A DNA stretch of 64,000 nt from an uncultured Candidatus Saccharibacteria bacterium (GCA_964566505.1 CAZMIM010000001.1:132581-196580); one strand, 5' to 3'; shown: positions 1 through 7,125, counted from the first letter of the stretch. Translations and numbers: made by a program. The notes: generated from the letters alone by a model not told the origin.

Positions 1-1462
1 TCTGATTGTACCCTTCAACTATAAATGGAATAAATTCCGTTATGGGACGAGTCCCTTCGAACGGTTGATTCTTGCTCGAACCAAGAACACCCGGAGATTG
101 AGCAATCCTTATTTGATCTGTTCCTCTACCCTCGATAGTATTGACATCTACTGTCGTTTTTTGTCCTTCAGGACTGCTGATACCGCTAATATCTAACGCG
201 TACTCATAGTCTTTTGCCCATATTTTCGTTGGCAGAAGGCCCAGTCTCAAGACTGAGTCCTTCATTAACTTCATACTAGGGTTTAGGTATACGTCATCCT
301 TGGTATTCACGGGCTCTCTATTGTGAAACAAAGATTCCAGATCAATAAGTATAGGATGATCCGAGCACGCGATGATATTCTCATGATGGAAATCGGTAGC
401 ATCAAGCATGTACAAGAGAGCCATGAGTCCACCGAGTCTAGTGTAATATCTCTCGATATCGGTTTCGGTATCGCATGTTTTGTGCTCTACAAACTCCGCA
501 TAGCCGTAATTATCGCACTCTAGTATTTTTATCGGTCGAAACTCTAGTGTTTGCGCATCTCGACTCAGGTTTCGTAGTAGTTCTTGAAATTCCGTCTCGA
601 CCCGCATTCCTCTCGGCTTATAGACGATGCGAGTGCCACATTCATACTCAAGAATTCTGACAGATTGACCTTCATTGTGAACATCTCCGGCTTCGACAGA
701 GATCGATGTGATTGTAGATTTGGTATGGAGGAAGGTTTCGGTTATTCGTTCATGATCATTATTAAGCCTTGTAAATAACCGTATCGAATTCTTTCTCCAA
801 TTGTCACACGAATGGATAATTCTACGAGCAAGCACCGGATATTCTTCAAAAATCTCAGCTCGTCTATCAGCCCCCAACAGTTGTTCACAGAAGTTGTAAA
901 AACCCTCCTCAGACGTCGGAGAGTCATGTGCTTCACGTAGTCGGGACACGTTTATTTCTAAAATCATAGTCCGATGAATCATCATACCTAACCGAGCTAA
1001 TAGCTCAGTTTTAAATGATTCCAGAGCAGTTTTTCGGGAGATGGCGATCTCCCTGATGTGAACATTGTGAAGATCTGATTCTAGTTTCTCCAAATAGTAG
1101 ATGATAAGAGGTCGCACCAGATTCAAAAATCCAATCTTTTCCGGCAGATCATAATTGTGTGCCTTGGACTCCAATGTGCTGGCGAAAGCTTTAGTAAATC
1201 GAGAGTACCAGCCAGAAACATCATCAACTTCAGAACTCGTTGAGTTGTTGCTTGTCGCAGACTCGATGAGCTCCAGAGGCACTCCGTAAACTCGAGCCTT
1301 AAGGTCACTAGTGTCGAAAAGTGATGTTGTGGGAATTGTCTTCCAAGCAGAAAAGAGATCGGCATTACTACTTGAATCAGCCGACTCAACGTTTTTAGTA
1401 TTTAAGCTGAGTCGCTCCTCAAGAAGCCTCGTCCTGTTAATAGCATTTGAAGTCAGTATCAT
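1..1462 (-). CDS. lanM: Class II lanthipeptide synthetase LanM, N-terminal dehydratase region (partial; ORF open to window edge)
   Basis: My reverse-complement read from ATG at 1460-1462 gives an uninterrupted ~487 aa frame (MILTSNAINRTRLLEE...). It contains the LanM kinase-like motif ATDFHHENIIACSDHPILIDLESLFH. Missing from the ORF track because no stop falls inside the window. Sits directly 3' of two LanA-like peptides. Confidence 0.65.
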   Translation of the reverse strand, partial: MILTSNAINRTRLLEERLSLNTKNVESADSSSNADLFSAWKTIPTTSLFDTSDLKARVYGVPLELIESATSNNSTSSEVDDVSGWYSRFTKAFASTLESKAHNYDLPEKIGFLNLVRPLIIYYLEKLESDLHNVHIREIAISRKTALESFKTELLARLGMMIHRTMILEINVSRLREAHDSPTSEEGFYNFCEQLLGADRRAEIFEEYPVLARRIIHSCDNWRKNSIRLFTRLNNDHERITETFLHTKSTITSISVEAGDVHNEGQSVRILEYECGTRIVYKPRGMRVETEFQELLRNLSRDAQTLEFRPIKILECDNYGYAEFVEHKTCDTETDIERYYTRLGGLMALLYMLDATDFHHENIIACSDHPILIDLESLFHNREPVNTKDDVYLNPSMKLMKDSVLRLGLLPTKIWAKDYEYALDISGISSPEGQKTTVDVNTIEGRGTDQIRIAQSPGVLGSSKNQPFEGTRPITEFIPFIVEGYNQ

Positions 1463-1518
1463 AGCTTAACATAAGCGACGTCAGCACCTCCCTCCAGGTG
1501 CTTTCGCCGTGTTGATGA

Positions 1519-1797
1519 TTAGCAACATCCAAACGTTAGTGCAGCGCAGGTTCCTTCCTCGTTACACCTTGACACATCACAGCTGAAACAGCTGATTAGT
1601 ATCGTTACCGTTATAGTGCACATTGCTCCGGTACATTGAGCGGTTGGCACATCCTCCGCACCCCCATGTATCATCCTAAGCTCCTCATCCCCAGCGACAA
1701 GCTCTCCTGCTGGATTTGGAAGTCTTGATGAGTCAATGGTTGGTGTTGATTCTCTGTAGGGAGATTTCCACTGCTGAATTATCTGTTCCTGAGTCAT
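1519..1797 (-). CDS. Lanthipeptide precursor peptide (LanA-like), GG-type leader plus Cys-rich core
   Basis: 92 aa. Leader ends ELRMIHGG; 46 aa core AEDVPTAQCTGAMCTITVTILISCFSCDVSRCNEEGTCAALTFGCC (8 Cys, many Thr/Ser). Strong SD aaaggagg 6 nt upstream of ATG. Confidence 0.75.
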   Translation of the reverse strand: MTQEQIIQQWKSPYRESTPTIDSSRLPNPAGELVAGDEELRMIHGGAEDVPTAQCTGAMCTITVTILISCFSCDVSRCNEEGTCAALTFGCC

Positions 1798-4760: not shown

Positions 4761-4764
4761 AGGA

Positions 4765-7125
4765 CTATGAGATATTCAATACTACTGGCGATGATACAGC
4801 GGATCGAAAAGAAATCACGCTGATAGCGACGGTGAGAACAACCAGTGACAAACTGACTGCACCGGCAAAAAGGCAAACATAAAACGAGGACAATATTTGG
4901 GGGTCCGTACTGGTCAAAGAACGGTAGACTATCAAGGATATCGGAATGTTAAGTATGCCCAACCCCAATACTATCAGGATATCTTTCTGAAACACCTTTA
5001 AGTAGATTCTTACTTTTGAAGACTCAAAAAGCCTATGAATACTCATTGTCTGCAAAAGGGCTCGATGTCGAGCAACAGCAAATATCCAAGTCCCAAATAT
5101 TGAGAGTACAAACAATGCCAGAGCTACGATGCTGTAAAGATGTGAAGCGGCTCTCTCGCTTTCATATAACTTGTCAAGTAGCTGGTCACCAAAAGAGGCC
5201 ATGAATGGTCTCATGGTCGAATATTCTGTCCAGACAGATTCGATAACTGAAACCTGTTGAGGGTCCTCAATGTCAATCAGCACTTTCCCAGCAGACCTGT
5301 AGTTTTCAGGCAGTGTTATAACGTTGGGACCATTTCTAGTGTATTTCGTGTCTTGCCATGTATCTGTTACTACTCCAACAACTTGAACATCATCTACGAC
5401 CAAAACTCCATTTACTGATCTCTGTAGCTGAATAGTTTGGCCCGTCCACGGTTGCCCGAGGTATTGTTCTGCGAATATTTCATTGACAACCGCGTGCTCT
5501 CTCGCATTGTGTTTCCTTGTATCCAAAAGCTCCCCCTCAATGAGCGTTCCTTTAAAAATGAGGGACTCTTCTTCAGAAACCATGAAGTGTGGTAGAGCTA
5601 CAACCTGATCGGTTCTAGCATCGCGAAATCCGATCTTGAACGGGTTTCTACCCGGAAGGCTCGAAGCCCTCGAGACTGTCTGAATACCTTCGATATTTAG
5701 TGCCTCTCTAAAAACACTAAAGTTGCTCTCGCTTGATAGAGACCATGCATCATCTACCACAACTGTACCCTCATAGCTCGTATTGACCATCTGCGACTTG
5801 TAGGCCTCAATTTCCCAGAACGAAAGGCCTGATATCGAAACGACAATAAGTAGAATGAGGAGCCGACTACTTTCGACAAGAGAGCCAGAAGTTCGATCTA
5901 TTGGATGAGAGTGATTTCTCATTTTAAATACACCGATCACAGCTGGAACCAGTACTACCACGAGATTCAGCAATACAAACGACGCAGCCAACGTGAGGAC
6001 CACGACTCCCATGTAGAAGCCACTATCGTCGTAATACTTGCCGAATTCTCCTTGACTCATCAAGAGCACACCCAGTTGTGCAACTCCCGCCACAAGGGAG
6101 ACTACAAGCGCTGTAAGAAGGGTCACTACTGCAAAATTTTCCTTACCAACTGAGGCAGGGCTAGCCCCACAAACATATTTTTGCGTCGTGAGCCTAGACA
6201 TTTTTGAGAAAATCTCTTTCAAAAGATATATATAACTCACTCCAGCCATCAGGAGGATGAGTACTCCAATTCCCAGTATTGCCCAAATCGATCTCTTGTT
6301 TGGGCCAGACGATAGTTCGTTTGCTCGGTGAGAGTTTAAATAAATATCATGTAGAGGCTGGACAACAATAGCCAAATTAGCGGTTGTCTCTTCCCCAAAT
6401 CTGGCAACCAAGTCTTCGCTGATATCTTTTTCGAGTTCATGTGCCGTTGTTCCAGAAGGCGTTTTGACATAGGTGTACATCGACAGAGAATTGGGAAGAA
6501 CTGCCGTAAGTAAAAAATCGTATGCAATGTGTGATCTGTATTCTGCTGGGTCAATGACAGCTCTAATCTCATACTGATCGAGGTTGGGGTTTTCCCCAGT
6601 ACCCCTAAGTAATACTTCCCCTATAACGTCTTCCCGGCCGAAATACTTCTTTGCGAAACGGGGAGTTACGATTGCGCTATTAGGTGATTTCAGCGCCAGA
6701 TCCAAACTTCCGTATCGGGCTTCTAGGGGGAATATTTTAGCAAAAAGACTGTCTACGTAGAAATATCGACTTTCCGAAAAAGCGCCATCATAATTTCCAT
6801 CTGTTGAAAAAAGGTGAGAAGTACCAACGGATAGAAATCCCGTTTTCAAGCTGATGTTTGATAGTCGCTTTTCAATGTCAAGTAGAAATTGACCAGGTAT
6901 TGTTGCCGCTCGTTGGATAGTTCCAGATCCAGGTGCACCAAAATCAACTGCGATTCTAAATATGTTTTCCGAACCTGGTATTTGCCGGTCATAGCTCAAT
7001 TGAGTTAATGAATAGGCGAGCAACAGAACAGCAATGGCGGCCCCTAGAGCTATAAATACGCATGACCACAACCAGTGATTGCCAGTAGTTTTTAAGCACA
7101 AAACACATCGCCTAGTAAAACTCAT
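4765..7125 (-). CDS. FtsX/MacB-like ABC transporter permease with large periplasmic domains (no cognate ATPase in window)
   Basis: 786 aa. N-terminal TM, MacB-like periplasmic segment (...SAIVTPRFAKKYFG...), two blocks of about four TM helices typical of double-FtsX permeases. Confidence 0.7.
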   Translation of the reverse strand: MSFTRRCVLCLKTTGNHWLWSCVFIALGAAIAVLLLAYSLTQLSYDRQIPGSENIFRIAVDFGAPGSGTIQRAATIPGQFLLDIEKRLSNISLKTGFLSVGTSHLFSTDGNYDGAFSESRYFYVDSLFAKIFPLEARYGSLDLALKSPNSAIVTPRFAKKYFGREDVIGEVLLRGTGENPNLDQYEIRAVIDPAEYRSHIAYDFLLTAVLPNSLSMYTYVKTPSGTTAHELEKDISEDLVARFGEETTANLAIVVQPLHDIYLNSHRANELSSGPNKRSIWAILGIGVLILLMAGVSYIYLLKEIFSKMSRLTTQKYVCGASPASVGKENFAVVTLLTALVVSLVAGVAQLGVLLMSQGEFGKYYDDSGFYMGVVVLTLAASFVLLNLVVVLVPAVIGVFKMRNHSHPIDRTSGSLVESSRLLILLIVVSISGLSFWEIEAYKSQMVNTSYEGTVVVDDAWSLSSESNFSVFREALNIEGIQTVSRASSLPGRNPFKIGFRDARTDQVVALPHFMVSEEESLIFKGTLIEGELLDTRKHNAREHAVVNEIFAEQYLGQPWTGQTIQLQRSVNGVLVVDDVQVVGVVTDTWQDTKYTRNGPNVITLPENYRSAGKVLIDIEDPQQVSVIESVWTEYSTMRPFMASFGDQLLDKLYESERAASHLYSIVALALFVLSIFGTWIFAVARHRALLQTMSIHRLFESSKVRIYLKVFQKDILIVLGLGILNIPISLIVYRSLTSTDPQILSSFYVCLFAGAVSLSLVVLTVAISVISFRSAVSSPVVLNIS

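Follow-up and report, generated by a model that had tools for sequence, protein, structure and literature searches.

A probable horizontally acquired class II lanthipeptide operon with two paralogous cysteine-rich precursors and a divergent type VII ABC permease in an uncultured Candidatus Saccharibacteria bacterium

Introduction

In the thermolanthin (tla) cluster of Thermoactinomyces sp., two paralogous class II lanthipeptide precursors, TlaA1 and TlaA2 (58% identity), are encoded together with one synthetase (LanM), TlaM, and one peptidase-containing ATP-binding cassette (ABC) exporter (PCAT) (PMC13343206). One synthetase, RosM, is also present for the two roseocin peptides of Streptomyces roseosporus, of which one carries four rings and a disulfide and the other six rings (PMC10027976). 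A further relevant group are the type VII ABC systems, which are reported to act on substrates at the external surface of the membrane (PMC12646458). Here, a locus that combines elements of these systems was analysed on a 64,000-nucleotide stretch of DNA from an uncultured Candidatus Saccharibacteria bacterium (GCA_964566505.1 CAZMIM010000001.1:132581-196580), which is referred to as the window throughout.

A sequence-only reading of the window had placed a class II lanthipeptide cluster in region 1-7125. All elements listed in that reading were found where it had placed them, and evidence from profiles, structures and homology agrees on the cluster type. Region 1-7125 probably covers most of a class II lanthipeptide operon that was acquired horizontally, is transcribed leftwards and would act by the mechanism set out in the Discussion.

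Results

A LanM fragment with an intact dehydratase domain

On the minus strand, the frame 1462..2 is open through 487 codons to the window edge, and since an in-frame stop codon is located two codons upstream of the ATG at position 1462, this ATG is the earliest possible start of the gene. The frame had been read as a LanM that is absent from the open reading frame (ORF) track because it has no stop inside the window. Both statements hold: no stop interrupts the 487 codons, and the search with hidden Markov models gave 379 bits against TIGR03897, above the cut-off of 304 bits, and an E-value (E) of 1.1e-85 against Pfam DUF4135 (PF13575) at profile positions 1-283 of 378. The best solved LanM relative is LicM2 (6st5; E 2.8e-47), with residues 112-486 of the fragment aligned to residues 47-426 of 979; CylM (5dzt) was matched with E 5e-28. 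The D-x-H-x-x-N catalytic loop (DFHHENII) and the IDLE segment are identical to the aligned LicM2 stretches, and the kinase-like dehydratase domain of the fragment is intact. According to the LicM2 alignment, about 550 residues including the whole LanC-like cyclase domain would fall outside the window.

Genome and metagenome scans with the fragment returned only relatives at 38% identity or less, several of the top matches being proteins of 640-711 amino acids (aa) with DUF4135 alone. These short matches, together with a relative (L057) in which a 711-aa gene with DUF4135 only overlaps a 398-aa LANC_like gene, would fit a split enzyme, i.e. a stand-alone dehydratase polypeptide with a separate gene for the LanC-like cyclase. 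We regard such an arrangement as decidedly unlikely for the window, as most LanMs, including LicM2, are fused and the gene seems to have been split in two further relatives by a frameshift (L055) and a transposase insertion (L056) (Table 1). A fused LanM is thus preferred.

A complete peptidase-containing exporter

The presumed LanT with C39 domain was confirmed as well: Peptidase_C39 (83.8 bits), ABC_membrane (71.9 bits) and ABC_tran (109.2 bits) were all found by Pfam above their cut-offs, and the protein aligns over its full length with PCAT1 (4ry2) and ComA (8hf7). In comparison to LahT150 (6mpz), the catalytic Cys (SDC) and His (AHF) of the C39 domain are kept, and the Walker A, signature and Walker B motifs are preserved. 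LanT is a full PCAT.

Two paralogous precursors with double-glycine leaders

Two precursors with GG leaders, ten and eight Cys and cores starting with AED had been reported, and these features were found as described. The leader of A1 ends in ...AELASISGG and is followed by the 44-aa core AEDCMSCSTNGACCTEGCTTTFACTRGESFPCGTCEILSIGCCA with 10 Cys and 11 Ser/Thr, while the leader of A2 ends in ...ELRMIHGG and is followed by the 46-aa core AEDVPTAQCTGAMCTITVTILISCFSCDVSRCNEEGTCAALTFGCC with 8 Cys and 10 Ser/Thr. AED stands directly after the GG in both cores. The leaders, which had also been said to share features, are of the same type and contain no Cys; the residues at positions -4, -7 and -12 (I/L/L and I/L/A) are hydrophobic as in double-glycine leaders. 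Against TIGR03898, A1 reached 23.4 bits (E 4.3e-5) and A2 22.8 bits (E 6.6e-5), slightly less than the cut-off of 23.5 bits; the leaders of both precursors appear to be of the mersacidin/lichenicidin type and end in a canonical double-glycine site. A1 and A2 share 40% identity spread over leader and core and are, as judged from their sequences, paralogues. An assignment of A1 or A2 as a mersacidin-like alpha peptide was rejected due to the absence of the lipid II motif, since the mersacidin-type ring motif C-T-x-[ST]-x-E-C is found in neither core.

For lanA1, the ATG at 2070 (85 aa) is best read as the start in preference to a 104-aa ORF with TTG. The exact 85-aa product is missing from the protein collection, so that lanA1 probably either went uncalled or was assigned a different start. 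The exact product of lanA2 is on record, as the source record already has lanA2 as a gene; it is preceded by a strong Shine-Dalgarno sequence, AAAGGAGGA.

A recurrent precursor family

A profile of A1 and A2 was searched against 1.84 billion cluster representatives (E<=1e-3). This gave 62 matches; some 57 of them, 72-108 aa long, are peptides that share the leader (W-K-D...N-P-A-G...G-G), and several are named 'mersacidin/lichenicidin family type 2 lantibiotic' in JGI/IMG. A word-indexed search with A1 gave no match. A loose C-terminal motif occurs in 36 scanned peptides, A1 and A2 included, usually in the form S-C-x2-3-C-[DG]-x-[ST]-x-W-x-G-[TS]-C-x3-[ST]-x-G-C-C. Alignment of 30 members with the motif showed no variation at the G, C and G and hardly any at the final CC. 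The motif reads GTCEILSIGCC in A1 and GTCAALTFGCC in A2, and both peptides retain every conserved family position.

The designation of the cores as unusually Cys-dense was correct in its counts and overstated in its wording. The retrieved cores contain 2 to 9 Cys, so that A1 with 10 is the maximum and A2 with 8 is near the top of a distribution that is itself biased, as the profile favours Cys-rich matches; in peptides of the same group the number is 5-9. Because other family cores reach 9 Cys, the Cys density of A1 and A2 represents the top of a range and not a new category. In the same way AED is a family trait, since the cores of several members open with the acidic sequence A-E-E or A-E-A; T-T-W-x-C, preceded by a short acidic segment, is a frequent start in the family. 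The family is recurrent and mostly metagenomic. It appears to be uncharacterised, as a literature text search for the motif strings gave no lanthipeptide paper.

A probable single LanM for both precursors

The likeliest arrangement, on the basis of the sequence comparisons, would be one LanM that modifies both peptides. It is favoured because A1 and A2, as paralogues, agree in the type of their leaders and in the C-terminal motif of their cores, because the locus with the best protein match of the LanM (L055) has LanT followed by four precursors with the A1/A2-type leader, one of which ends in GGTCSILSQGCC, and then one LanM, and because thermolanthin and roseocin give precedents. In another relative (L023) the gene order is LanT, precursor, LanM.

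With two precursors and a single partial LanM in view, a two-component (alpha/beta) lantibiotic with a dedicated LanM for each peptide, the second one being encoded beyond the left window edge, has to be considered. LicM2, the best solved relative, is the beta-peptide synthetase of the two-component lantibiotic lichenicidin, and the frequent T-T-W-x-C start of the family recalls beta peptides. However, the known alpha and beta precursors are dissimilar, whereas A1 and A2 are 40% identical with a common leader and end motif. Moreover, neither core shows the lipid II motif, and the closest LanM relative serves its four precursors with one enzyme. A second dedicated LanM is therefore unlikely. 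Synergy of the two peptides is compatible with their modification by one LanM, which remains the preferred explanation.

A divergent type VII permease and a single-pass membrane protein

The 786-aa protein had been described as an FtsX/MacB-like permease without ATPase. Pfam FtsX and MacB_PCD gave no match to it even at E<=10, so that the name FtsX/MacB-like is not borne out by these two families and stands on remote homology and predicted fold. Against the DarB equivalog NF038008 the match is full-length and weak (61 bits, E 4.7e-17), and an assignment as DarB was rejected as the cut-off is 700 bits. The duplicated orphan permease family ADOP (TIGR03434) was matched with E 7e-8. The only homologues are 21-27% identical, and all of them carry PF02687 (FtsX) and PF12704 (MacB_PCD). 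A model was generated with AlphaFold2 (AF2) from an alignment of 8 sequences, with a predicted local distance difference test (pLDDT) score of 69. It shows the order transmembrane helix (TM) 1, extracytoplasmic domain, TM2-4, TM5, extracytoplasmic domain and TM6-8. The top PDB match of this model in Foldseek is E. coli YbbP (9ge6; E 2.8e-17), followed by MacB, BceB, LolC/E and HrtB. From the remote homology, the modelled topology and the Foldseek matches it follows that the protein is a divergent fused type VII ABC permease.

The permease has no nucleotide-binding domain, and type VII permeases need a separate ATPase. No stand-alone ABC ATPase was found in the 64-kb window, where the sole ABC signature with a Walker A motif is that of the nucleotide-binding domain of LanT itself, nor was an ATPase remnant found upstream of the permease; the term ATPase-less is thus correct for the window and reaches no further, as an ATPase gene may be located in the left flank. 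Among the permease relatives, one (P0015) has an ATPase gene directly upstream, one (P0017) is located behind an outer-membrane factor and a membrane-fusion protein, and one (P0012) lies in ATPase-less tandem arrays. A resistance transporter of the BceAB type was rejected because the permease, with 8 helices and two large domains, has the wrong topology; BceA, BceR and BceS were not found in the window.

The small membrane protein predicted beside the permease has 155 aa and one confident helix: a short cytoplasmic N-terminus is followed by a TM helix at about residues 22-44 and about 110 extracytoplasmic residues. In L055, a 210-aa single-pass membrane protein (3450-4082) overlaps the start of LanT and thus has the equivalent position; no similarity between the two proteins was found by BLASTP. 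We propose that the 155-aa protein is an accessory or immunity component.

The gene for the 155-aa protein begins 4 nt past the stop codon of the permease gene, the ATG of lanT overlaps the stop codon of the 155-aa gene by 4 nt, and both membrane proteins are translationally coupled to lanT. Due to this coupling and the known action of type VII systems, the two proteins would, by analogy, most likely constitute a module for self-protection or extrusion. The main alternative is that they are export accessories to LanT, as DarBCD are for darobactin, and not immunity proteins. The darobactin export permease DarB is the best family match and is covered over its full length; the permease gene, the 155-aa gene and lanT are coupled; L055 likewise has a small single-pass membrane protein that overlaps the start of LanT; and in the relative P0017 the permease comes after an outer-membrane factor and a membrane-fusion protein. 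On the other hand, the DarB score is far from the cut-off, no gene for a membrane-fusion protein or an outer-membrane factor is present in the window, and the small protein of L055 is not similar to the 155-aa protein. A PCAT alone is enough for export in many clusters, that of thermolanthin being an example, which also counts against accessories. We consider an export function possible and somewhat unlikely, and self-protection or extrusion is retained as the preferred role.

Operon layout and genomic setting

The minus strand of region 1-7125 contains six reading frames in a tight series, which are contiguous and partly overlapping (Table 1). A possible operator or terminator, in the form of a perfect 14-bp inverted repeat (TCGTTATAGACAGT, 6-nt spacer, ACTGTCTATAACGA), was observed at 7260-7293, some 135-170 nt upstream of where the permease gene starts. 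All proteins checked from the source contig are singletons at 90% identity, with the exception of the integrase.

To the right of the permease gene follows 1.1 kb without an intact gene. In its gene-less part at 7640-8230 (minus strand), pieces resemble by eye the C-terminal end of a DDE (IS3-type) transposase; for a 58-aa piece of the 7.6-8.2 kb stretch a DDE transposase was not confirmed by Pfam. Next to it a 5′-truncated tRNA-Gln(CTG) is located at 8253-8325 on the plus strand; it retains only 8276-8325, from the anticodon stem to CCA, and is followed by a strong terminator hairpin. The truncated gene scored 29.7 bits with Rfam and was not called by ARAGORN. A metagenome scaffold from ENA (L058) contains an intact tRNA-Gln (9765-9840), the same terminator and a 94.8%-identical integrase, and its identity with the window starts exactly at the anticodon stem, at window position 8276. 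Since the scaffold has the intact tRNA and the same downstream DNA, position 8276 marks a sharp boundary, which is either attP-like or separates tandem islands. Neither a second attachment (att) copy nor a far-end att repeat of the neighbouring island was found in the window.

The neighbouring mobile element extends from 8471 to about 35960 with a G+C content of 47-54% and is led by a tyrosine integrase. Besides the genes listed in Table 1 it contains a 4HBT thioesterase, a cupin regulator with helix-turn-helix (HTH) and a DctP receptor of the TRAP type. The Logan contigs that match the integrase begin inside the tRNA fragment. The element is modular, as Logan contig L049 corresponds to 8296-12637 at 99.86% and then diverges.

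The G+C content at third codon positions (GC3) is 0.36-0.44 in the cluster genes, 0.27-0.36 in the core genes at 36-64 kb and 0.42-0.57 in the 8-35 kb stretch, where most genes exceed the cluster. As the GC3 of the cluster is above that of every core gene and a sharp junction of tRNA-Gln and integrase lies to its right, the cluster is probably of foreign origin. It borders on the junction of an island, in DNA of mosaic and mobile character. The core genes at 36-64 kb (about 40% G+C) include those for ClpB, IF-2, GyrA, LeuS and YceG. The short IF-2 (about 500 aa from its likely start) and a protein with Sigma70_r4 and HARE-HTH (60398-61438) are, as we presume, reminiscent of Patescibacteria. 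The abrupt change of the G+C content near 36 kb could reflect a large island or a chimeric contig. Within this part, an 80-nt direct repeat is present at 49626-50881 in four copies, which have diverged (63-100% identity) and are separated by 297-455 nt; they lie inside small minus-strand ORFs, which are probably tandem paralogous genes for small membrane proteins.

Table 1. Features of the lanthipeptide operon, the neighbouring mobile element and the LanM genes of three relatives
Sequence	Feature	Coordinates	Strand	Remark
Window, operon	lanM, N-terminal 487 codons (dehydratase/kinase-like domain)	2..1462	-	runs off left window end
Window, operon	lanA2, 92-aa precursor (46-aa leader, 46-aa core)	1519..1797	-	
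Window, operon	lanA1, 85-aa precursor (41-aa leader, 44-aa core)	1813..2070	-	
Window, operon	lanT, 691-aa C39-peptidase ABC exporter	2221..4296	-	C39, six-helix TM domain, nucleotide-binding domain
Window, operon	155-aa single-pass membrane protein	4293..4760	-	
Window, operon	786-aa duplicated type VII (MacB/FtsX-type, YbbP/DarB-like) ABC permease	4765..7125	-	
Window, mobile element	tyrosine integrase	8471-9739		
Window, mobile element	VirD4-like coupling protein	15615-17612		
Window, mobile element	MobA/VirD2 relaxase domain	18098-18676		
Window, mobile element	Beta_protein	22548-23633		
Window, mobile element	IS3-type OrfA	24020-24667		
Window, mobile element	Endonuclease_NS	28471-29547		
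Window, mobile element	Shedu SduA_C protein	34848-35960		
L055	LanM	8001-11357		broken at model position ~671-700, likely frameshift
L056 (Anabaena sp. UHCC 0253)	LanM	8001-12155		transposase-like gene between two halves
L057	LanM	8001-11325		apparently natural split: 711-aa DUF4135-only gene overlaps 398-aa LANC_like gene

Discussion

The proposed mechanism starts with the single LanM, which would bind the leader common to A1 and A2, phosphorylate Ser/Thr of the cores and then eliminate the phosphate to give dehydro residues. The C-terminal cyclase of the enzyme, presumably encoded outside the window, would subsequently add Cys thiols to these residues, so that many thioether rings may be formed, with overlapping rings probably located on the C-terminal G-T-C-x3-S/T-x-G-C-C motif. 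With 10 and 8 Cys facing 11 and 10 Ser/Thr, up to 10 and 8 rings could result, or fewer rings together with disulfides. LanT would cleave after GG and export the peptides, and a second protease may remove the common acidic AED, as happens in beta-type lantibiotics. Finally, the permease and the 155-aa protein would remove the product from the membrane surface by mechanotransmission, powered by an ATPase encoded elsewhere.

Several points weigh against this interpretation. For thioether formation and the number of rings, and likewise for a second LanM or tailoring enzymes, we rely on inference, because the cyclase half of the LanM and the DNA downstream of it are outside the window. Both leader scores lie just under the TIGR03898 cut-off of 23.5 bits. 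In the C39 domain the third residue of the triad is Asn where LahT150 has Asp (FNPAIG vs NDPAKG), which is a small caveat. In the operon scan, promoter-like sites occur at chance level and none stands out, and terminator-like sites are about twice as frequent as the shuffle mean, yet none marks the operon ends. The permease may be inactive, since no ATPase is encoded within the 64 kb. For the 155-aa protein neither a Pfam or NCBIfam family nor a homologue was found, and its AF2 single-sequence model is unusable, the helix alone being confident (pLDDT 84-89; mean 43.7). The putative immunity role of both membrane proteins is argued solely from their position and from the behaviour of type VII ABC systems elsewhere.

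Some of these points could also be expected of a decaying relic in a graveyard of mobile DNA that yields no product, with an orphaned permease and a LanM that is perhaps truncated. The right flank, with its gene-less 1.1 kb, truncated tRNA-Gln and integrase module, is in line with decay, as are the permease without an ATPase partner in the window, the change from Asp to Asn in the C39 triad and the interrupted or split genes among the close LanM relatives. However, none of the six reading frames is disrupted and their coupling is tight, conserved motifs are retained in the LanM (kinase motifs), the C39 domain (Cys and His) and LanT (Walker A, signature and Walker B), and both precursors retain all conserved positions of their family. 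A relic is therefore quite improbable.

Three traits of the cluster are modestly unusual, namely the very high Cys count, the apparently uncharacterised precursor family and the combination of an orphan permease with an orphan membrane protein. Provided that the two peptides are produced, few class II lanthipeptides would be as densely cross-linked as A1, and a solved A1 would give the precursor family a ring topology. Moreover, the cluster could serve as a test case for whether fused type VII permeases that are not of the BceAB type act in lantibiotic immunity or extrusion. Apart from this, it is fairly ordinary and one of the thousands of LanM clusters known from genome mining. In the most far-reaching version, a single LanM would install 8-10 rings, or rings and disulfides, in the first characterised members of a widespread and almost purely metagenomic family, the cluster would have moved on mobile DNA into an ultra-small Patescibacteria-like genome, and the orphan permease and the new 155-aa protein would constitute an undescribed immunity or export module; that all of this applies is rather unlikely.

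Compared with the mersacidin/lichenicidin clusters defined by TIGR03898, the locus shares the leader elements I-x-x-W-K-x-x-x-Y-R, N-P-A-G, the acidic stretch and G-G as well as the combination of LanM and a C39-ABC LanT, and LicM2 is the nearest solved LanM. It differs from them in that A1 and A2 score slightly below the family cut-off, are without the C-T-x-[ST]-x-E-C lipid II ring, end with G-T-C-x3-S/T-x-G-C-C and contain far more Cys. The permease resembles E. coli YbbP (YbbAP-TesA), MacB, LolCDE, BceAB and DarB in its architecture, a fused and duplicated permease with 4 TM helices and an extracytoplasmic domain per half. YbbP, however, has an identity of about 10% and pairs with YbbA, whereas the permease of the window is Pfam-negative and has no adjacent ATPase.

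With roseocin and with prochlorosin/ProcM the locus would share a promiscuous LanM, several precursors, a conserved leader, differing cores and products with many bridges (PMC10027976), whereas the leaders of those systems are of the NHLP or Nif11 type instead of the mersacidin type and the cores are unrelated. Thermolanthin, whose minimal set of two paralogous precursors, one LanM and one PCAT agrees with the locus, differs in the 4 Cys of both TlaA1 and TlaA2, as opposed to 10 and 8, in the higher identity of its precursors (58% vs 40%) and in a cluster without a type VII permease. It is alike in that cleavage at the double-Gly site leaves a short, possibly trimmed stretch and in that overlapping C-terminal rings are expected (PMC13343206).

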